A stretch of DNA of 64,000 bases from an uncultured Chitinophagaceae bacterium (lineage in GTDB: Bacteria; Bacteroidota; Bacteroidia; NS11-12g; UBA9320), in the NCBI GenBank assembly GCA_964613385.1, contig CAZTGZ010000002.1:83419-147418 (forward strand). Reading direction: 5' to 3'. Positions 4,334 to 24,947 of the stretch are shown one piece after another. The notes under the pieces are model-generated. The model did not search any database. It saw only the letters and a list, made by a program, of their open reading frames with translations, and was not told the DNA's origin. A program made the translations under genes and the position numbers. Within the stretch, counting starts at the first letter, position 1. Each line of letters opens with the position of its first letter.

Positions 4334-5020
4334 TCAAAGAGTGAACTCCAGCTTTCGGTAATCCTCTTCCTCCGATATGTTCGCAATTTCGAAACTTAAA
4401 AACATGATTTTCTTGCCTTCGAGCAACCATTTCTTTTCATAAAATGTTTGTATCTGAATCAAATCTGTCCGGCTTTTATCGGCATAAACATCAGGTATAT
4501 CATGCCAAACTTTCAGGTTCAATTGATGAATTACCTCTTTGGTGAACTCATACAATTCTGCACTGTCTGTTTTAAGATGAACCCGCAGGTCTGTTTGCCC
4601 AATATTTTTAAATTTTTGTAAAAAAACAGGATGGGTCAATCTTTTTTTCGCTTTGCCTTTTCTTAAATGAGGATCGGCAAAAGTGATCCAGATCTCAGAT
4701 ACTTCACCGGGGTCGAATTGCGATTCGATATGGCTGATTTGTGCCCGCAAAAAAGCCACATTGTGAAGGCCTTTATCTATGGCTGACAGAGCGCCCCGCC
4801 ACATTCGATTTCCCTTAATATCAACTCCAATGTAGTTGGCTTCCGGCCGGAGTTCTGCCAAACCCAAGGTATATTCTCCTTTACCACAGGCTAATTCAAG
4901 CACGATCGGACGTGAATTTTCAAAAAAGTCACTCCATTTGCCTTGCATGGCAGATGATTCCTCGAAAGTGTTGGGAAAGGAGGAGAATTCTGCAAAACGC
5001 TTGAGTTTTTGTTTAGCCAT
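4334..5020 (-). CDS. trmB: tRNA (guanine-N7)-methyltransferase
   Basis: SAM-MTase motif LELACGKGEYTLGLAELRPEANYIGVDIKG and TrmB-like length (228 aa). Confidence 0.8.
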   Translation of the reverse strand: MAKQKLKRFAEFSSFPNTFEESSAMQGKWSDFFENSRPIVLELACGKGEYTLGLAELRPEANYIGVDIKGNRMWRGALSAIDKGLHNVAFLRAQISHIESQFDPGEVSEIWITFADPHLRKGKAKKRLTHPVFLQKFKNIGQTDLRVHLKTDSAELYEFTKEVIHQLNLKVWHDIPDVYADKSRTDLIQIQTFYEKKWLLEGKKIMFLSFEIANISEEEDYRKLEFTL

Positions 5021-5029
5021 AGGGCAAAA

Positions 5030-6088
5030 TTAGGCAGAATCCTTTTCACAAAAAGTCACCAGGGCTCTCCTATCGGGTTTAAACTGAATTCTGGGAATGG
5101 ATGATATTCTGTGCCATTGAACCGGAATCAGTCGGGAATCTGCAACCGTCTTCAGGTATTCGGATAATTCTGCCCAATTGAATTCCAAAGGCAAATCGCC
5201 ACTATAAACCGCATGTATCTGCTCGCCCAATTTCGCATGGGGTATTCCTACAATAATACATTCTGCCTGATAACCTAATTTTGACAAATAGCCGATCACT
5301 CTGGCCTCCATGTCAGGAGCATACAGTTTTAGTCCGCCACTATTGATCCATTCCATACTTCGTCCTGAAACATAGAGCTTGTCCGATGCTACATAACCGT
5401 AATCACGGGTCTCCACGTCTATATGAAAACGGTCGATTTTAACATGAATCCATGGGTTGGCTTCCACTTTGACTCCGTTCAACAAGTGATAACCTTCGTC
5501 CTTTTCACGGATATCCCTCAAAGCAATGTGACCCGCAGTTTCGGTCAGTCCAAAACCCAGCCATACCGGATTTGAATGCCTTTGAAATCGAGCTGTCAAT
5601 TCAGAAGACATTGCTGCCCCTCCCAACAAAATTGTGTCAACTTTCATCAATTGTTCTAAGGATTCACGATGCGAGCAAACCGTTTGAAGCTGATACGGTG
5701 ATAAGGCCATATAGCTGATATTTTTCGACAATTTCAAAAATGGGTCTGCCACCGGTGGCAAACAAATGAGATCCCAGTTAAAATGTAGGCATCTCAACAC
5801 CATCATTAATCCTCCGGCTTTGTCCAGCGGGAGGGTTGATGCTGCAATCTGCGGACCCTTTATTCCCATAAATGCAGCACTCTCTTCTATAACCCATTCA
5901 ATATATGCCCGCTCATGCTCCATCACATGTGGTTCACCGGTTGATCCTGAGGAGACCATTACCGGTACTCCACCTCTATCCCAAATTTGAATAACCGAAG
6001 CCAGTTTCGCCAGCAGTGGATTTGAATCTTCAAGAAAATTATCCGCCTCCTTCCGATCAAACTCCCGACCCTCACAAATAATTTTCAT
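5030..6088 (-). CDS. AMP-binding (adenylate-forming) enzyme, O-succinylbenzoate-CoA ligase-like
   Basis: AMP-binding P-loop variant SSGSTGEPH. The compact size (352 aa) is typical of Bacteroidetes MenE-like ligases. Confidence 0.55.
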   Translation of the reverse strand: MKIICEGREFDRKEADNFLEDSNPLLAKLASVIQIWDRGGVPVMVSSGSTGEPHVMEHERAYIEWVIEESAAFMGIKGPQIAASTLPLDKAGGLMMVLRCLHFNWDLICLPPVADPFLKLSKNISYMALSPYQLQTVCSHRESLEQLMKVDTILLGGAAMSSELTARFQRHSNPVWLGFGLTETAGHIALRDIREKDEGYHLLNGVKVEANPWIHVKIDRFHIDVETRDYGYVASDKLYVSGRSMEWINSGGLKLYAPDMEARVIGYLSKLGYQAECIIVGIPHAKLGEQIHAVYSGDLPLEFNWAELSEYLKTVADSRLIPVQWHRISSIPRIQFKPDRRALVTFCEKDSA

Positions 6089-13001: not shown

Positions 13002-14267
13002 TTACATATTGGAAATAATGGCACTGCCAAATTCTGAACATTTCAGCAAGGTGGCGCCTTCCATCAATCGTTCAAAGTCGTAAGTGACGGTTTTGTTCGA
13101 AATGGTCTTTTCCAATGCGTCATAAATCAGCTGCATCGCCTCGGTCCATCCCATATATTCGAGCATCATGGCGCCTGAAAGAATAACCGATCCGGGATTA
13201 ACCTTGTCTAAATCGGCATATTTCGGAGCCGTTCCGTGGGTAGCTTCAAATATGGCATGTCCGCTAACGTAATTGATGTTGGCTCCGGGAGCAATTCCAA
13301 TGCCGCCCACGATTGCTGCCAGCGCATCACTCACATAATCGCCGTTCAAGTTCAGAGTGGCAATTACCGAGTACTCTTTAGGACGCAACAGTATCTGCTG
13401 TAAAAACGCATCGGCAATGGAATCTTTCACGATAAGTTTTCCTGCAGAAATAGCAGCGTTCTGTGCCTGATTGGCTGCATCTTCTCCTTGTGCTTCTTTA
13501 ATTTTATCGTACTGCTGCCAGGTAAACACTTTGTCACCGAATTCACGTTCCGCCAGCGCATATCCCCAACTTTTGAAAGCACCTTCGGTGAACTTCATGA
13601 TATTCCCTTTGTGCACCAAAGTAAGGGAGGGCTTTTTATTCTCCAGGGCGTATTGAATGGCGGCCCGCACCAGACGCTCCGTTCCTTCCTGAGAAACCGG
13701 TTTGATTCCTATAGACGAGGTTTCGGGGAAACGAATTTTGTTCACACCCATTTCTTCTTTGAGAAATTTTTTCACCTTATCGGCTTCGGGTGTTCCGGCC
13801 ATGTATTCGATACCGGCGTAAATATCTTCGGTATTTTCACGAAAAATCACCATATCGCAATATTCAGGATGCACAACCGGAGAGGGCACTCCGCTAAACC
13901 AGCGCACCGGGCGCACACAGGCATATAAATCCAGAATTTGTCTGAGGGCTACATTCAGAGAACGGATACCGCCACCAACCGGAGTGGTTAATGGGCCTTT
14001 GATGCCGACAAGATACTCTTTAAATGCATCCAGGGTTTCATCGGGCAGCCAGTTTCCGGTTTCATGAAATGCCTTTTCACCGGCCAAAACCTCTTTCCAA
14101 TGAATTTTGCGCGTTCCGCCATAAGCTTTTTCCACCGCTGCATCCATTACACGCACGGAGGCATGCCATATATCGGGTCCGGTACCATCACCGATAATAA
14201 ATGGGATAATGGGTTGATCGGGAACCTGTAGCTTTCCGTTTTGTATGCTTATTTTTTGTGCGCTCAT
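13002..14267 (-). CDS. icd: NADP-dependent isocitrate dehydrogenase
   Basis: [13 protein letters not shown] and GSAPKYAD-like motifs. 421 aa, length typical for IDH. Confidence 0.85.
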
Positions 14268-14345
14268 GATGTATAAATTTTAAGGTGCAAATCTATTGGG
14301 ATAGGGGGGGAAAACAAAGGGTGGGGAAAATTAGTTTGGGGGAGT

Positions 14346-14440
14346 AAAAAAGACGATCCCGCATATAGCGGGACCCTCTTAAATGTTTTCACTACGGAAT
14401 AATCCTTATTGTGATTTGCTTCATTGCAAAAATAATAATT
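14346..14440 (-). ncRNA. tracrRNA: tracrRNA of the adjacent type II-C CRISPR-Cas system (anti-repeat, nexus, terminator)
   Basis: The minus-strand transcript reads 5'-UUUUUGCAAUGAAGCAAAUCACAAUAAGGAUUAUUCCGUAGUGAAAACAUUUAAGAGGGUCCCGCUAUAUGCGGGAUCGUCUUUUUU-3'. The anti-repeat pairs with the minus-strand repeat GUUGUGAUUUGCUU (G·U at repeat nt 1, then 13 WC pairs, then G·U at U15), followed by a 4-nt bulge and a 5-bp upper stem. The nexus-like AAGGAUUAUUCCG resembles S. pyogenes AAGGCUAGUCCG. A GC hairpin followed by a U6 tract forms an intrinsic terminator. The 5' end is uncertain. Confidence 0.65.
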
Positions 14441-14469
14441 ATTATTTTAGCAGAAAAGAGCTATACATT

Positions 14470-17400
14470 ATGACTTTAAGATTAGGGTTAGATATCGGAG
14501 TTAATTCCGTTGGGTTTGCGTTGGTAAGAGAAGAAAACAACGAAAGTAAAATTGAAAAGTTAGGGGTAAGAATTGTTACAGAGGATCCAAATTTTCACGG
14601 CAAATTTTATCAGGGAAATACGGCCAGTAAAAATGCAGAAAGAAGATTAAATCGTGGCGCTCGACGAAACTTGGATCGTTATCAATTGAGGCGAGATAAA
14701 CTGATAGAAATTCTCGAAGACACAGGAATGATGCCGGATGAAGACCTGCTCTTAAAGATAAGCAGTTTGGAATTATACGAATTGAGATATAGAGCAATTC
14801 AAGAAAAACTCAGTTTACCCGAATTAGGCAGAATATTTTATCACCTCAATCAGAAACGCGGTTTCCAAAGCAGTAGAAAAGGAAATAATGAAGAAAATGA
14901 AACCGAATACAAAAAAAAGCTCAAAGAAAATTCAGAAGGCTTGGGTAGCCAAACCATTGGTGAATATTTTTATCATAAACTAATGGATAATCCATGGTAC
15001 AGAATCAAAGAAAATTTGTTTTTCCGTTCTGATTATAAGGCGGAATTTGACCGAATTTGGGACAAACAATCAAATTATTATCCGAATTTAATGACCGGAG
15101 GTCCAAAAAATACCAACAATAAGGGAACTCTTTACAGTCTGATTCGAAATAAAACCATCTATTTTCAAAGGCCTTTGAAATCAGCTAAGAATTTGGTAGG
15201 AAAATGCACTTTTGAACCTTTAAAAAGAGTTATTCCAAAAAGTCATCCTTTATATCAGGAGTTTAGAATTTGGCAACAATTGAACAATCTTGAAATTACG
15301 CATGAAAATGTAAAATTAATACCAAATGAAGAACAAAAAACATTGTTATGGACAAAGTTGCACGAACCATCTCAATTAGACAAATTGGGAAACCTTACAG
15401 CCGCAAGTATTAAAAAAGTATTGGGCATCAACAAAAACGCAACAGTCAATTATGAAAAAATTGAAGGCAACAAAACTCTCAGAGCAATCAGCAAGGCGCT
15501 GGAGGCTGTTGACTTGGATTACAATTTTGAAATGCCCGATTTAAAGAATTTAAGGGAATTTGAAAACACAAACTTTGTTAAACTATGGCATTTGACATAC
15601 AGTATTGAGAATGAAAATCATCTTATAAACTGTCTAAAAAAGCAATTCAATATTGAAGCAGAGAAAGCTCTATACATAGCTGAAAATGTGGGATATACTT
15701 CCGATTTTGGTAGTCTTTCAGCAAAGGCTATTAAGAAAATTCTTCCCGGTCTTTGGGACGGAATGAAATACGACCAAGCTGTTCAGAATGCAGGATATAA
15801 ACACCACAGCAAATTTGAAGATAATCAAGCTGTGTTAGAATTTTTACCGAGTATCAAACCCAATACATTAAAAAATCCTGTGGTAGAACAAATCTTAAAT
15901 CAGGTAGTAAATTTGGTAAATAATATTATTCAAGACTATGGCAAACCCGATGAAGTAAGAGTTGAATTGGCCCGGACTCTTAAATCAAACGCCAGAGAAC
16001 GAAATTCAATATCAAAAAAACAGAGAGATTTAGAAAAAAAGAATAAAGAAATAATGGAGGAATTGAAAAACTATCCTCAATTCAAAAGAGTCAGTGGTAG
16101 AGATTTAAAAAGATATCGGTTGTGGGAAGAGACCGATAAACTTTGTTTGTATTGCGGACAACCAATTTCATTTGAACAGGTATACAACGGAATGGCAGAA
16201 ATTGAACATATCATACCTAAGTCGCGCATTTTTAGTGATGCCATGAGCAATTTAGTATTAGCCCATGTCAAGGAAAATCGGGAGAAAGGACAAATGACTG
16301 CATATGAGTATCTGGAAGGAAAGGGACACAATTTGCTTAAGAATTATGAAGAATTAGTATCCAAACTTTATAACGAAAAAAAGATTACCAAATCAAAATT
16401 TTCTAATTTAATGATGAAAGGTGGGGATATTCCAAGCGATTTCCTCGAAAGACAATTGAATGACACACGATACATTTCACGAGAAGCTCTTAATATTCTC
16501 AAACAGGTATTTCCAAAAGTTTATTCCACTTCGGGTTCAATTACAGATTTATTAAAACAGAACTGGCAATTAAATCATGTATTGGAGGAAATTAATTTGC
16601 CTGTATACAGAAAAGAAGGTCTAACCTATAAAACAGAAATTAAAGATAATTCCGGGAATATAAAAGTAGTTGAACGAATTAAAGATTTTGACAAAAGATC
16701 CGATCACAGGCACCATGCGGTTGATGCTTTGGTTATTGCATGCACCAAGCAGTCATATATTCAAAAGCTCAATAATCTGAACAAAGAATTTCAAACTTAC
16801 AATAGCTTAAAACAGAGCCCATATGAGTTTGAAATGCCATCAAAACATTTTCGTACAGATGTCATAGAACATTTATCATCATTATTGATTAGTTACAAGA
16901 AACCGGGTACAAAAGTCCTATCAAGAAAAATAAATATTTATAAATCTGCCTCAGGCCCAAAGAAACAAATAACCTGGGCACCCAGAGGATCCTTACATGA
17001 AGATACGGTTCTAGGAAAAATTAAAAGGTATTCAAAGCCGAAAGATTGGAAAGATATCATTTTGAACCCTCAGAATATTGTGAACGAACAAGTAAGATTG
17101 GCCGTTAATGAATTATTAGCTCAACACAAAGACCCTAAAGGCGCTCTGGCGTATTTAAAAAAGAACAATTTAGAAATCAATGGGATTGAAGTAAAACATC
17201 CGTTGCTTTGGGAATATAAATTCACCAAAAGAGTAAGAATTTCGGACAACATTACTCAACCCCAAATTGATAAAATCATAGACGGAAGAGTCAAAGACTT
17301 AATTTTAGAAAGGATAGAAAATTACGGGAGCATAAAGTCTGCTTTTAAAAATTATATCGATAACCCTATATTAATTGATATAGGGAAAAAGGTCCCTTTA

Positions 17401-17886
17401 AAAGCAATAACGGTTCGGGATGAGGGCAACTTGCAAAGTGTAAGAAATGGAAATGTTTATTTAAAAGGGAACCATCATGCTCTAATTTTTCAAAGTGAAG
17501 AAGGTGAATATCAGGAAAAAATGGTTAGTTTTTGGGAAGCTGTTGAACTGGCATTATGGAATCTGAATAATACTGGCAGTATTTACCCTATCATTGATCG
17601 AAATCCAAATGATTCTGGTTTACCGTTAAAATACAGCTTACAAATAAATGATCTCTTTGTAATAGGAAATCATCCAAATGAATTGAGTCAGGCTGAATTG
17701 TCTTTATCTTTATTTCGAGTACAAAAGCTGTCAAAAGGAGATTATTTTTTCCGGCAGCAATATCAGACCAAAATTGACATTGACAAAGAATTCTCTATGA
17801 GACGGATTAATTCACTTAAAAAATTCAATGATATCTATAAAATTAGGCTAAACCATGTGGGTAATATTTTACAAATTGGAGAATAA
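14470..17886 (+). CDS. cas9: Type II-C Cas9 endonuclease (1138 aa)
   Basis: RuvC-I motif at the N-terminus (LGLDIGVNSVGFALV). HNH motif (EIEHIIPKSRIFSDAMSNLVLAHVKENREKGQ). RuvC-III (HHAVDALVIA). The track ORF's upstream extension (14383-14469) overlaps the antisense tracrRNA and is judged non-coding. Confidence 0.9.
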   Translation: MTLRLGLDIGVNSVGFALVREENNESKIEKLGVRIVTEDPNFHGKFYQGNTASKNAERRLNRGARRNLDRYQLRRDKLIEILEDTGMMPDEDLLLKISSLELYELRYRAIQEKLSLPELGRIFYHLNQKRGFQSSRKGNNEENETEYKKKLKENSEGLGSQTIGEYFYHKLMDNPWYRIKENLFFRSDYKAEFDRIWDKQSNYYPNLMTGGPKNTNNKGTLYSLIRNKTIYFQRPLKSAKNLVGKCTFEPLKRVIPKSHPLYQEFRIWQQLNNLEITHENVKLIPNEEQKTLLWTKLHEPSQLDKLGNLTAASIKKVLGINKNATVNYEKIEGNKTLRAISKALEAVDLDYNFEMPDLKNLREFENTNFVKLWHLTYSIENENHLINCLKKQFNIEAEKALYIAENVGYTSDFGSLSAKAIKKILPGLWDGMKYDQAVQNAGYKHHSKFEDNQAVLEFLPSIKPNTLKNPVVEQILNQVVNLVNNIIQDYGKPDEVRVELARTLKSNARERNSISKKQRDLEKKNKEIMEELKNYPQFKRVSGRDLKRYRLWEETDKLCLYCGQPISFEQVYNGMAEIEHIIPKSRIFSDAMSNLVLAHVKENREKGQMTAYEYLEGKGHNLLKNYEELVSKLYNEKKITKSKFSNLMMKGGDIPSDFLERQLNDTRYISREALNILKQVFPKVYSTSGSITDLLKQNWQLNHVLEEINLPVYRKEGLTYKTEIKDNSGNIKVVERIKDFDKRSDHRHHAVDALVIACTKQSYIQKLNNLNKEFQTYNSLKQSPYEFEMPSKHFRTDVIEHLSSLLISYKKPGTKVLSRKINIYKSASGPKKQITWAPRGSLHEDTVLGKIKRYSKPKDWKDIILNPQNIVNEQVRLAVNELLAQHKDPKGALAYLKKNNLEINGIEVKHPLLWEYKFTKRVRISDNITQPQIDKIIDGRVKDLILERIENYGSIKSAFKNYIDNPILIDIGKKVPLKAITVRDEGNLQSVRNGNVYLKGNHHALIFQSEEGEYQEKMVSFWEAVELALWNLNNTGSIYPIIDRNPNDSGLPLKYSLQINDLFVIGNHPNELSQAELSLSLFRVQKLSKGDYFFRQQYQTKIDIDKEFSMRRINSLKKFNDIYKIRLNHVGNILQIGE

Positions 17887-17895
17887 AGCCAAGCA

Positions 17896-19145
<1,250 letters not shown>

Positions 19146-19245
19146 AAAAAACAGGAATTTTCAACTTTGGTACATGAAATCCACGATTTTTTTCGACAAC
19201 AAACAAAGCTGTAACCCTTTGTTTATAAGGGCTACAGCGAGGTCT

Positions 19246-22200
19246 GTTGTGTTCAAAGAACGGTTCTTCTGATTTTGAAAGCAAATCACAACCTTTCCTA
19301 ATTCTTTATTCATGATGTTCTTGTTGTGTTCAAAGAACGGTTCTTCTGATTTTGAAAGCAAATCACAACGGTGTAGATGCAATAGAGATTTCCCAGAAGG
19401 TTGTGTTCAAAGAACGGTTCTTCTGATTTTGAAAGCAAATCACAACTGTTGCACATAGCTCAACATGGCCATTGCGTTGTGTTCAAAGAACGGTTCTTCT
19501 GATTTTGAAAGCAAATCACAACGCTTTTTGTCAATTTGTGACAAGTCATATAAGTTGTGTTCAAAGAACGGTTCTTCTGATTTTGAAAGCAAATCACAAC
19601 AGCTCATGTAAACGCCCTTGCAATGGCGGCGTTGTGTTCAAAGAACGGTTCTTCTGATTTTGAAAGCAAATCACAACCTGTGCTTGTTGCTCTATTAAAA
19701 GAGCCTGTGTTGTGTTCAAAGAACGGTTCTTCTGATTTTGAAAGCAAATCACAACTGATTCGTAAAGGTTTTCAATCAAGGTCAAGTTGTGTTCAAAGAA
19801 CGGTTCTTCTGATTTTGAAAGCAAATCACAACCTTACTGGATTGCAACATTCCAGAATGTACGTTGTGTTCAAAGAACGGTTCTTCTGATTTTGAAAGCA
19901 AATCACAACTATTCATTCGTTCTCCTATCCACTTTGCAAGTTGTGTTCAAAGAACGGTTCTTCTGATTTTGAAAGCAAATCACAACATGAGCGTAGGACT
20001 CACCGGAGCTGTGGACGTTGTGTTCAAAGAACGGTTCTTCTGATTTTGAAAGCAAATCACAACCACCGAGCAGTTTAATATCTCCGCTGTCTTTGTTGTG
20101 TTCAAAGAACGGTTCTTCTGATTTTGAAAGCAAATCACAACGGCCGTCAAAAATGAACTTATCAATTATGTGTTGTGTTCAAAGAACGGTTCTTCTGATT
20201 TTGAAAGCAAATCACAACTATCAACCACAAACGTGTGCAATAGTTCAGTTGTGTTCAAAGAACGGTTCTTCTGATTTTGAAAGCAAATCACAACCATCTG
20301 CAGTAAGGTTCAATGAGGTTGGCAAGTTGTGTTCAAAGAACGGTTCTTCTGATTTTGAAAGCAAATCACAACTTATGCGCAAACCGCCTTAATACCATTG
20401 TCGTTGTGTTCAAAGAACGGTTCTTCTGATTTTGAAAGCAAATCACAACTGCGGAGCTGCACAATTTGTTGTCAGAAACGTTGTGTTCAAAGAACGGTTC
20501 TTCTGATTTTGAAAGCAAATCACAACTGTATATGGATGATCCAAAATCCTTGCTATGTTGTGTTCAAAGAACGGTTCTTCTGATTTTGAAAGCAAATCAC
20601 AACTTACAATGGGTTCTGCCTTTACGGCTTTTGTTGTGTTCAAAGAACGGTTCTTCTGATTTTGAAAGCAAATCACAACTGCAGGATTATTTGGATGTTG
20701 TCCGGTTGGTTGTGTTCAAAGAACGGTTCTTCTGATTTTGAAAGCAAATCACAACCGTTTAGGGAATACCCTTAATGACTTTTGTGTTGTGTTCAAAGAA
20801 CGGTTCTTCTGATTTTGAAAGCAAATCACAACACGTTGGTGTGTATGGCATAGCTGACGGACGTTGTGTTCAAAGAACGGTTCTTCTGATTTTGAAAGCA
20901 AATCACAACACGTTACGCGATTTGATACGGCTGAATTGAGTTGTGTTCAAAGAACGGTTCTTCTGATTTTGAAAGCAAATCACAACCTGACAATCTTGCG
21001 CGTTGAATGAATCCACGTTGTGTTCAAAGAACGGTTCTTCTGATTTTGAAAGCAAATCACAACGGCCGTCGAAAATAAACTTATCAATTACGTGTTGTGT
21101 TCAAAGAACGGTTCTTCTGATTTTGAAAGCAAATCACAACGTTTCATCTTTTCGTCGTTATCCCCAACTGGTTGTGTTCAAAGAACGGTTCTTCTGATTT
21201 TGAAAGCAAATCACAACTTAAAGACTGCATTATTGTACTTTCTGTCAGTTGTGTTCAAAGAACGGTTCTTCTGATTTTGAAAGCAAATCACAACCAATGC
21301 TACACAGGGCTTGAATGCGTTTGCGTTGTGTTCAAAGAACGGTTCTTCTGATTTTGAAAGCAAATCACAACGACTTTACGCGGCTTTACCTCTGTATTTA
21401 TGTTGTGTTCAAAGAACGGTTCTTCTGATTTTGAAAGCAAATCACAACTCCAGCAACGTGTTTATTGTTTGAAATCTGGTTGTGTTCAAAGAACGGTTCT
21501 TCTGATTTTGAAAGCAAATCACAACTTAACGAGTGCAACAACGTAACATGGGAAGTTGTGTTCAAAGAACGGTTCTTCTGATTTTGAAAGCAAATCACAA
21601 CGGCATGGTGTTTGGTTGGGTAGGTGTTGCGGTTGTGTTCAAAGAACGGTTCTTCTGATTTTGAAAGCAAATCACAACCAAGAAAGCGAAGAAACTCTTC
21701 AGGTGTTAGTTGTGTTCAAAGAACGGTTCTTCTGATTTTGAAAGCAAATCACAACTTAGTTACCAGCATAAGTGGCGGAACTTTTGTTGTGTTCAAAGAA
21801 CGGTTCTTCTGATTTTGAAAGCAAATCACAACCGTTCCTAACGTTACCCATGTAATAGATTCGTTGTGTTCAAAGAACGGTTCTTCTGATTTTGAAAGCA
21901 AATCACAACTCCTTCTGGCTCTATAAAAGTTCAAAGAAGTTGTGTTCAAAGAACGGTTCTTCTGATTTTGAAAGCAAATCACAACTCTGAGTGCGTTGAA
22001 TACTTGAACGCCAATGTTGTGTTCAAAGAACGGTTCTTCTGATTTTGAAAGCAAATCACAACTTACTTCATATGATTCCGGTGGTGGAAATGTTGTGTTC
22101 AAAGAACGGTTCTTCTGATTTTGAAAGCAAATCACAACTAAGGTAGTGTAGTTCGTTCCGTCAAATTTGTTGTGTTCAAAGAACGGTTCTTCTGATTTTG

Positions 22201-23290
22201 AAAGCAAATCACAACTTCTTCCGTGGAGTTTGTTAAACCATTGATGTTGTGTTCAAAGAACGGTTCTTCTGATTTTGAAAGCAAATCACAACAGTTTGTT
22301 ATTAGTTTGATTTTACTTCACTGTTGTGTTCAAAGAACGGTTCTTCTGATTTTGAAAGCAAATCACAACTGTCCGGCAATGCTAACAAATATCTACGCGG
22401 TTGTGTTCAAAGAACGGTTCTTCTGATTTTGAAAGCAAATCACAACTAGATGTTCATACATTTGGTCTTGTGTCATGTTGTGTTCAAAGAACGGTTCTTC
22501 TGATTTTGAAAGCAAATCACAACCAGATCCATACGGTGGAGAAGTGAAAAAGGTTGTGTTCAAAGAACGGTTCTTCTGATTTTGAAAGCAAATCACAACT
22601 ATAAACGTAAGCACCCCAATTTCCGTAAGGTTGTGTTCAAAGAACGGTTCTTCTGATTTTGAAAGCAAATCACAACCAAACCACAACGAAACATTAATTC
22701 AGAGAAGTTGTGTTCAAAGAACGGTTCTTCTGATTTTGAAAGCAAATCACAACGCGTCAATTCTAACTTATCAACCGCATACGTTGTGTTCAAAGAACGG
22801 TTCTTCTGATTTTGAAAGCAAATCACAACCGGTTGCGCCCGATACCGCCTCGCCAATTGGTTGTGTTCAAAGAACGGTTCTTCTGATTTTGAAAGCAAAT
22901 CACAACTATTCCTGACGTTCGTCATGGGCGTGACAAGTTGTGTTCAAAGAACGGTTCTTCTGATTTTGAAAGCAAATCACAACTACGCCTGTCAGCTCTC
23001 TTTTGTCTGCGAGGTTGTGTTCAAAGAACGGTTCTTCTGATTTTGAAAGCAAATCACAACTCCATCTCGAAAAGGTAATTCCGTCCAATGTTGTGTTCAA
23101 AGAACGGTTCTTCTGATTTTGAAAGCAAATCACAACTGCCCAGCCCCAGAGAGTTGTGTCAATACTGTTGTGTTCAAAGAACGGTTCTTCTGATTTTGAA
23201 AGCAAATCACAACAAAAATAGAAGTCGTATTCGTTCATGTACTGTTGTGTTCAAAGAACGGTTCTTCTGATTTTGAAAGCAAATCACGAA
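19246..23290. CRISPR. CRISPR array of about 53 repeats and 52 spacers; 47-bp repeat GTTGTGTTCAAAGAACGGTTCTTCTGATTTTGAAAGCAAATCACAAC, spacers 29-30 bp
   Basis: Regular 76-77 bp periodicity from 19246 to 23290. The terminal, cas-distal repeat (23244-23290) is degenerate at its last 6 bases (…CACGAA instead of …CACAAC). The repeat has GTTGTG/CACAAC termini typical of Bacteroidetes II-C arrays. Confidence 0.95.
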
Positions 23291-23456
23291 AGATTTATTC
23301 TATTGTGTAGCTAAAAATTGTTGTACTCAAAGACAAATATTGACAAACTGTTTCATGGGTTGGAATAGTCGTTTTTCCAGACATTAGTGTCTAGCTTGTA
23401 CCCGTGATGCCTACAGATGTCTAAATTGCATTCATGCATCGAAACTGCCTCAACAA

Positions 23457-24947
23457 TCAAAGCAAATGAATGGTTTTTGATACTATTTTCCGTTCACTTC
23501 CAGATGTATTTATTTCAAATATTACCATGTAAACTCCTTTGATGGAAGTATTTCTATAGTATCCATTCCATCCATTTTCTAAATCTGTGGTTTCAAATAG
23601 TTTTTCACCCCATCGATTATAAACTTTTAAGGTTCCGGTAACGTGGCTACAATTTGTAATCAATGAATAGGTATCATTCATTTGATCATGGTTTGGAGTG
23701 AATGCATTGGGAAAATGGATTTTACACTCACAGTGCTCATTTCTTATTTCTACGGTATCACTGGCACTTCCGCAGAAATTACTTATGGTCAATCCCAAAA
23801 AACCATATCGAAAACTGTTTTGTGCCAAAATTGAGCCATCACTCCACAAGTATTGCAAGATATCTGGTTTGTATGCGTTTATTTCTATTTCTGATGAATC
23901 ACAATTTTCAATGGGATCTCCCAATTCCAAACCTGGCTTTTGATACGCTTTAATTAAAATGGAATCTCTGGATATCCCACATGCATTGCTTACTTCGATC
24001 CAATAGATTCCTTCAGTTCTTGTTATTATGTACAAGCCTGAATCACCGGTGTTCCAATTACTTTTTACAATGTGATGGTGAGAGGTTGTTGCGTCAATTC
24101 TGATGTATTGATGATCGCAAATAAATGTGTCCTTTGGTAATACCACATTCGGACTTTCTAAAAACTGAATGTAAATTGAATCCATGTAAAGGCAATTTTT
24201 CTGGAACCCGGTTACAAAATAAATACCGGTGGTATCTACACGAAATTGATTTGTTTGAGATCCATCAGACCATGAAATGATAGAATCCAAACCCAAAGGT
24301 TTCAGATCAAATCCCAAGGATTGATCACACAAGATGGTGTCAGCAGGAAGTATGTGTTTCGAATCGTTGGCAAAATCATTTACTTCTATAACCACATCAT
24401 CAATGGCCATCCACATTTGAGGTCCCTTGGGAATAAATACAAGATACTTGATATTTTTACGGGCTTTAAAACAACCTTCTATTGTATGCCATATGGTATC
24501 ACCCTTGATTTGCGTTGACTCCCATTCCAAATTGCCTGAGTGTAAATGTACATTGTTTGCGGCACTATTCGTTACGCCTGGCACTTCATCCAACCCAAAT
24601 ATTTGAAGCGTGTTTTGAAAATCCCAAATGCTGCAAACCTTTAATCTAATTCTATAAGTAACAGATTCTGATAAACTTAAACTTTGACCTATGGATTCGG
24701 AACTGCCAATCATTGCATAATAATTTCCAGAAACGGGTCTCGGCCAGTGTGGGAAAATAGAAGGGTCTGCCCCAATATAATCGGGAGAAGGTGTAAATGC
24801 ATCCCAATTATAAACTTTATTAAAATCCAATTCTCTACTGGCAATATTGCCCGTATTCATTTCAAAACTTTCATTCGAAAGAAGGTTTTGACCTAACATG
24901 CCTTGAATAGAGCCAAAGAAAAAAAGTAAAAAAACACCTCCTTTCAT
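23457..24947 (-). CDS. Secreted protein with T9SS type B (gliding-motility-associated) C-terminal sorting domain
   Basis: Signal peptide. The C-terminus (CKIHFPNAFTPNHDQMNDTYSL...GTLKVYNRWGEKLFET...WNGYY...GVYMV) matches the CHU_C/T9SS type B CTD pattern. Confidence 0.6.
   Translation of the reverse strand: MKGGVFLLFFFGSIQGMLGQNLLSNESFEMNTGNIASRELDFNKVYNWDAFTPSPDYIGADPSIFPHWPRPVSGNYYAMIGSSESIGQSLSLSESVTYRIRLKVCSIWDFQNTLQIFGLDEVPGVTNSAANNVHLHSGNLEWESTQIKGDTIWHTIEGCFKARKNIKYLVFIPKGPQMWMAIDDVVIEVNDFANDSKHILPADTILCDQSLGFDLKPLGLDSIISWSDGSQTNQFRVDTTGIYFVTGFQKNCLYMDSIYIQFLESPNVVLPKDTFICDHQYIRIDATTSHHHIVKSNWNTGDSGLYIITRTEGIYWIEVSNACGISRDSILIKAYQKPGLELGDPIENCDSSEIEINAYKPDILQYLWSDGSILAQNSFRYGFLGLTISNFCGSASDTVEIRNEHCECKIHFPNAFTPNHDQMNDTYSLITNCSHVTGTLKVYNRWGEKLFETTDLENGWNGYYRNTSIKGVYMVIFEINTSGSERKIVSKTIHLL

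Follow-up and report, generated by a model that had tools for sequence, protein, structure and literature searches.

The question raised by this locus is whether the short interval between icd and cas9 encodes the tracrRNA of the neighbouring CRISPR-Cas9 system and, if so, where that RNA begins and whether it would serve as part of the guide or as a regulator of cas9. The 64-kb stretch of DNA analysed here (the window) carries icd on the minus strand at 13002-14267 (NF005425, 737 bits), followed on the plus strand by cas9 at 14470-17886 (1138 aa; TIGR01865, 569 bits), the type II cas1 gene at 17896-18810 (TIGR03639, 283.6 bits) and cas2 at 18807-19145 (TIGR01573, 72.7 bits), the last of which adjoins a CRISPR array of 53 repeats of 47 nt at 19246-23289, the crRNA sense of the repeat being GUUGUGAUUUGCUUUCAAAAUCAGAAGAACCGUUCUUUGAACACAAC on the minus strand. 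As cas9, cas1 and cas2 lead directly into the array, and as neither csn2 nor cas4 gave a score among the four proteins scanned at the locus, the system is assigned to type II-C. The open reading frame track had placed the start of cas9 at 14383, which the first-pass annotation regarded as an over-extension, and rightly so: TIGR01865 aligns from residue 4 of the protein that begins at ATG 14470, the N-terminus of this protein (MTLRLGLDIGVNSVG) has the RuvC-I motif, and 20 Cas9 homologues align with it from end to end (100% coverage). All homologues of this Cas9 are from Bacteroidota, the nearest relative being 60% identical and most others 40-50%, while a comparison by sequence with solved structures returned 6jdq, which we take to be NmeCas9, at E ~1e-56, along with further Cas9 entries whose E-values go as low as 2e-71.

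Judged from its sequence, the minus strand at 14346-14422 very probably represents the functional tracrRNA gene of this Bacteroidota type II-C locus, which, with cas9, cas1, cas2, 53 repeats, the tracrRNA gene and the corrected cas9 start, is apparently intact. The predicted primary transcript of 77 nt (GAAGCAAAUCACAAUAAGGAUUAUUCCGUAGUGAAAACAUUUAAGAGGGUCCCGCUAUAUGCGGGAUCGUCUUUUUU) has its 5′ end placed by the position of a -7 promoter box and its 3′ end by a U6 tract, and is matched by a covariance model of the family (R1, see below). From 5′ to 3′ it would comprise an anti-repeat at 14408-14422 (GAAGCAAAUCACAAU), a nexus-like hairpin at 14395-14407 (AAGGAUUAUUCCG, stem GGA/UCC) that is near-invariant in 35 aligned relatives, a conserved single-stranded linker at 14378-14394 (UAGUGAAAACAUUUAAG), for which the alignment of the 35 relatives gives the consensus UUGUGAAAACAUUUAAG, and an intrinsic terminator at 14346-14375 (GGUCCCGC-UAUAU-GCGGGAUC, then GUC and the U6 tract at 14351-14346), for which the terminator scan of the window returned a hairpin of 8 bp, 6 of them GC, followed by T6. 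The gene would be delimited by a predicted promoter of its own (perfect TAnnTTTG, 14434-14427) and by this Rho-independent terminator (14375-14346). The first-pass annotation had already placed a minus-strand tracrRNA gene between icd and cas9, with anti-repeat, nexus-like hairpin and intrinsic terminator, and each of these points is upheld. The 87-nt transcript sequence given at that time is indeed that of the minus strand from 14346 to 14432; the interval assigned to it, which extends to 14440, adds 8 A/T bases at the 5′ end.

The pairing of this RNA with the minus-strand CRISPR repeat was reproduced as originally described, in that RNAcofold gives a G·U, 13 Watson-Crick pairs and a U·G, amounting to 15 contiguous pairs with repeat nt 1-15 (GUUGUGAUUUGCUUU), the 3′ end of the anti-repeat facing repeat nt 1. 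The 15-nt duplex has an energy of -18.8 kcal/mol, as compared to a mean of -5.1 and a best value of -13.5 among 1000 shuffles. The plus-strand repeat was also considered as the partner and was rejected, its pairing being scattered and of the wrong geometry (-14.1 kcal/mol versus -21.3 for the minus strand). When the 64-kb window was searched with the 13-mer AAGCAAATCACAA, allowing up to one mismatch, 54 copies were found, 53 of which are in the array while the other is at 14409-14421 (-), the chance expectation from shuffles being ~0.3 matches. This is the sole copy of the repeat 5′ end outside the array in 64 kb.

The geometry of the anti-repeat fits crRNAs that are read from the minus strand, towards cas2, and so do two features of the array. 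The first is a terminator-like 12-bp hairpin on the minus strand at 19208-19238, between cas2 and the first repeat and followed by UUUGUUUGUU / TTTGTTTGTT, which is likely to stop transcription of the array short of an antisense run through cas2. The second is the upstream-most ('extra') repeat at 23243-23289, which is mutated at nt 1 and 3 (TTCG versus GTTG), both of them in the 15-nt segment to which the tracrRNA would pair; extra repeats of type II-C systems have been found to be mutated within their first 15 nt (Feussner et al. 2025; PMC12080349). Among the repeat families of Rfam, CRISPR-DR49 on the minus strand of the array scored 27.8 bits against a threshold of 41, and the CRISPR-DR49/50 matches were all below threshold. 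In several relatives (e.g. L055 and L064) the repeat, when read by eye, carries a perfect TATCTTTG in the crRNA sense 16 nt before the spacer, as would be expected of promoters inside the repeats like those of Neisseria; the repeat of the window has only a poor internal -7 box (GTTCTTTG), situated 8 nt before the spacer and inside the palindrome AAGAAC-C-GTTCTT, and repeat-internal promoters are therefore uncertain here. Two spacers of the array, at ~20142-20171 (GGCCGTCAAAAATGAACTTATCAATTATGT) and ~21064-21093 (GGCCGTCGAAAATAAACTTATCAATTACGT), are near-identical, as might be expected if variants of a single target had each given rise to a spacer.

The identity of the RNA is further supported by its relatives, for which 80 loci were fetched from species-representative genomes by means of an alignment of 21 Cas9s. 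In approximately 45 array-bearing loci, the best match outside the array to the cas-proximal end of the repeat is found on the strand opposite to cas9, 50-140 nt before that gene. After this match come AAGGATTATTCCGTTGTGAAAACAT, which hardly varies, then a GC hairpin that does vary, and a run of T. The covariance model R1, which was built from 35 related loci with the window excluded, matches the window at 14346-14423 (-) over the full length of the model with 80.6 bits (E 4.9e-16), the second-best match scoring 21.7 bits. R1 matches 79 of 82 related Bacteroidota type II-C cas9 loci, with family scores of 52-89 bits, and in 77 of the 79 matched loci the gene is positioned upstream of cas9 on the opposite strand. 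The RNA of the window fits the family layout, which consists of CACAAU-AAGGAUUAUUCCG-UUGUGAAAAC, a GC hairpin and a U tract, and its repeat fits the family partner, a repeat of 36-48 nt that starts with GUUGUGA(A/U)UUGCUUUCA. Rfam had been suggested as a check on the tracrRNA call, and cmscan of 13900-24000 with E up to 10 listed no tracrRNA family; the missing match presumably reflects the coverage of the library and the taxonomic scope of its models, and not absence of the RNA.

Covariation between the repeat and the anti-repeat was assessed in an alignment of 36 loci in which repeat nt 1-16 were joined to the anti-repeat and nexus. Of all cells, 95.5% were paired as compared to at most 47% with the partner slid, the percentage being inflated since the anti-repeats had partly been located by their similarity to the repeat, although the invariant nexus by which they are anchored is independent of the repeat. 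Six pairs changed on both sides, and none of 500 shuffles reached the observed values. Pair 8 is UA in 20 loci, AU in 13 and GC in 1, pair 10 is UA in 25, AU in 6, CG in 2 and GC in 2, and pair 14 is likewise among the anti-repeat positions that vary between UA, AU, GC and CG with the repeat of their own locus. The nexus stem has one fully compensated variant, AAAGAUUAUUCUG (GGA/UCC to AGA/UCU), while the homologous terminator hairpin of the relatives has 8 pairs with compensatory changes in all of them.

The two loci in which the gene is positioned differently are L018, where it is found at 5793-5870 (+), upstream of cas9 but on the same strand, and L050, where it is found at 16261-16339 (+), just past the far end of the array and with its own TACTTTTG box. 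The order of the unit in L050 is TACTTTTG, a spacing of 2-3 nt, anti-repeat, nexus and terminator. The tracrRNA gene seems to relocate as a whole, its promoter, anti-repeat and scaffold together. In L081, whose Cas9 is the closest relative (60%), cas2 is followed by only one repeat, a degenerate one (4900-4950), and then by a hipA/HTH pair; the array seems to have been lost from this locus, with tracrRNA and cas genes retained.

As regards the start of the RNA, a perfect -7 box, TATTTTTG (TAnnTTTG; 14427-14434, minus strand), is present 3 nt upstream of UGAAGC and is predicted to belong to a sigma-A promoter. The TAnnTTTG box of Bacteroidetes sigma-A occupies positions -12 to -5 in Flavobacterium (PMC9723704), and with this placement TATTTTTG predicts a start at G14422. 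We consider it probable that the tracrRNA starts there, which would make it 77 nt long (14422-14346) and reduce its anti-repeat to a bare stretch of 15 nt. The predicted promoter has a weak -33 element (TTTT/TTTC), and a sigma-70 promoter scan was uninformative because the phylum uses other promoter motifs. A promoter of the textbook Bacteroidetes type was observed for icd (TTTG-N19-TAGATTTG, 14318-14288, minus strand; predicted start at ~14283, 16 nt before the icd ATG), and the sigma-A box rules are plausibly valid in this genome as a consequence. In 79 of 81 loci the anti-repeat has upstream of it a TAnnTTTG box that departs from the motif at no more than one position. In L050 the whole unit, TACTTTTG included, is at another place, on which ground the box is argued to belong to the tracrRNA gene. 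The distance from box to anti-repeat is bimodal across the 81 loci (~3 nt or ~10-12 nt), being 2-5 nt in ~20 of them, including the window and its closest relatives L081 and L082, and 8-15 nt in ~58, which suggests short (~15 nt) and long (~23 nt) classes of anti-repeat. Among the loci with the long spacing, those whose duplex has no gap lose their complementarity to the repeat within 0-3 nt of the start predicted by the box, and in the window the contiguous complementarity stops exactly at the predicted +1.

The first-pass annotation had proposed a longer RNA of ~87 nt or more, with its start at or upstream of 14432 and with a duplex that would continue through a 4-nt bulge into a 5-bp upper stem, in the lower stem, bulge and upper stem arrangement of Streptococcus pyogenes. 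The complementarity on which this proposal was based is real, as RNAcofold draws, beyond the 15 pairs, a 4-nt bulge on the tracrRNA side (CAAU) followed by the upper stem UUUUG:CAAAA; these five pairs form in full in the window, L049 and L050, and in L081 an AAUUG faces the CAAUU of its single degenerate repeat. That the upper stem is a part of the RNA is unlikely, since UUUUG sits in the -7 box and the start predicted from that box is downstream of it. The upper stem contributes only 1.4 kcal/mol to the cofold (-44.5 versus -43.1), and since almost every repeat contains CAAA, a -7 box will always match it through its TTTG. Moreover, in other short-spacing loci only 3-4 of the 5 positions pair, yet TA..TTxG at a fixed spacing of 3 nt persists. 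Reading the sequence by eye disclosed no better promoter box farther upstream in the window, and clade X duplexes are typically without bulges (Gasiunas et al.; PMC7606464). A start at or upstream of 14432 is considered unlikely in view of these points, and a start at G14422 is preferred.

If the RNA does begin at G14422, the window may exemplify a minimal anti-repeat form, with the box ~3 nt away and a duplex of ~15 bp, to which about one quarter of the Bacteroidota tracrRNA family would belong, a generalization that we put forward tentatively and at slightly less than even weight. In such a form the RNA would begin where the pairing with the repeat begins, the duplex would be too short for co-processing by RNase III, crRNA maturation would be obligatorily independent of RNase III, and the former upper anti-repeat (TTTG) would have been recruited as promoter DNA. 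The two-class spacing between promoter and anti-repeat is the one point of wider interest at this locus, and predicts a sizeable subgroup with a 15-nt anti-repeat.

The RNA had also been described as antisense to the 5′ region of cas9, a description that rested on the spurious start at 14383 and that does not survive its correction, since the RNA lies 48 nt upstream of ATG 14470, does not overlap the cas9 coding sequence and would be transcribed away from it. Convergence on the cas9 promoter would need that promoter to be upstream of 14346. Such an arrangement is conceivable with a one-mismatch plus-strand box at 14331-14338 (TTAGTTTG), which would make the cas9 leader antisense to the tracrRNA, and many relatives have only 29-50 nt between the anti-repeat and the cas9 ATG, so that in these the promoter of cas9 might be situated inside the tracrRNA gene or past it. 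A second one-mismatch plus-strand box, at 14443-14450 and 19 nt before the cas9 ATG (TATTTTAG), would instead give divergent transcripts without overlap, a comparison of 69 loci shows no excess over the control strand of plus-strand boxes past the 3′ end of the tracrRNA gene, and conservation tracks the features of a Cas9 scaffold and not the cas9 leader. It is hence very unlikely that the locus is mainly regulatory, with a transcript or its transcription antisense to, or colliding with, the cas9 leader and thereby tuning cas9, be it with or without a role as tracrRNA.

The least probable reading is that of a silent relic, that is a decayed solitary repeat fragment that is untranscribed or unused, for although a weak tracrRNA-like remnant is present at 23275-23341 (+), the match at 14346-14423 has a mid-range score for the family over its full length, none of its parts (promoter box, nexus, linker, terminator) is decayed, the cas genes are intact, the array retains 53 repeats, and the 64-kb window has no alternative tracrRNA. 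The remnant at 23275-23341 (+) was itself considered as a second, possibly decayed, copy of the tracrRNA gene and was set aside, as R1 gives it only 21.7 bits (E ~0.007); it consists of the end of the terminal repeat and the flank AAAGATTTATTCTATTGTG, the alignment of the flank to the nexus having p ~0.02, and a tracrRNA-like motif was not found after the array at the same place in 24 relatives.

From the sequence features, homology and covariation computed here we infer the expression of the tracrRNA, its ends, its binding by Cas9 and a bypass of RNase III. According to the scheme that we favour, a sigma-A promoter with TATTTTTG as its -7 box would drive minus-strand transcription of the tracrRNA in the direction that leads away from cas9, starting at or next to G14422 and stopping at the GC hairpin and U6 tract (14375-14346) to yield an RNA of ~77 nt. 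Its first 15 nt (GAAGCAAAUCACAAU) would pair with the first 15 nt of the repeat in minus-strand crRNAs, while Cas9 would bind a scaffold made up of the nexus hairpin (GGAUUAUUCC), the linker with its conserved GUAGUGAAAACAUUUAAG, and the 3′ hairpin, and the dual RNA would guide Cas9 to DNA cleavage by means of the spacer. A duplex of ~15 bp without extension would make co-processing of the repeat by RNase III unlikely, and the crRNAs probably either keep long 3′ ends or have them shortened by other nucleases.

The tracrRNA family to which the window belongs is already described and biochemically tested, and the window harbours a member that is attached to a divergent Cas9. Chylinski et al. (2013) described a Bacteroidetes subcluster of Cas9 with repeats of up to 48 nt (PMC3737331), Zhu et al. 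(2016) identified a 16-nt anti-repeat, TGAAAGCAATTCACAA, upstream of cas9 in Riemerella anatipestifer (PMC5006608), and supplementary file 4 of Gasiunas et al. (2020) gives the tracrRNA of Capnocytophaga canis Cca1 (clade X) as GAAAGCAAUUUACAAUAAGGAUUAUUCCGUUGUGAAAAC... / GAAAGCAAUUUACAAUAAGGAUUAUUCCGUUGUGAAAACAUCUAGUGCCUCGCC... (PMC7606464). In the latter study Cca1 is listed with an sgRNA of a 16-bp duplex and with a determined PAM, and the nexus sequence is present in the supplement (PMC7606464); the sgRNAs of Gasiunas et al. show that a 16-bp duplex suffices for this family. With the Bacteroidota type II-C and clade X systems the window shares a 47-nt repeat beginning with GUUGUGAUUUGCUUUCAAA, an anti-repeat that ends in CACAAU and is immediately followed by AAGGAUUAUUCCGU(U/A)GUGAAAACAU, one GC hairpin and a U tract, and the position of the gene upstream of cas9 on the opposite strand. 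It differs from them in the length of Cas9 (1138 aa versus 1430 aa for Cca1), in the linker (GUAGUG versus GUUGUG in the clade X family) and in its anti-repeat, which is probably short (15 nt from the start site) as compared to ~23 nt in most relatives. With the tracrRNA call the annotation of this type II-C system, apparently an intact one, becomes complete. The call establishes no new principle; it does provide a guide scaffold with which this divergent Cas9 could be tried, in the form of an sgRNA made of repeat nt 1-15/16, a loop and 14422-14346.

The resemblance to the type II-A system of S. pyogenes is one of module order, namely anti-repeat, AAGG-N-CCG nexus hairpin, 3′ hairpin(s) and U tract. 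The nexus of S. pyogenes is AAGGCUAGUCCG, a motif similar to the AAGGAUUAUUCCG of the window, whereas outside the nexus there is no sequence homology, and the window has one 3′ hairpin as compared to two in S. pyogenes. The bulged duplex of S. pyogenes is not supported for the tracrRNA of the window, and the two systems further differ in that the array of the window is read antisense to the cas operon and that its 15-bp duplex makes RNase III an unlikely partner in processing. The window resembles the type II-C systems of Neisseria meningitidis and Campylobacter jejuni in having cas9-cas1-cas2 with no fourth gene, and its array is predicted to be read against the direction of the cas genes, as are theirs (PMC3737331). 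It differs from them in the sequence family and gene position of the tracrRNA and in repeat length, which is 47 nt here versus 36.

A final observation concerns the free tracrRNA, in which the anti-repeat can form a helix, by way of its 3′-terminal UCACAAU, with the GUUGUGA that comes just past the nexus (GUAGUGA in the window; 14385-14414, minus strand), this post-nexus segment being a copy of the first 7 nt of the repeat. The helix is invariant and for that reason without support from covariation; by forming it, the free tracrRNA may mask its own anti-repeat.
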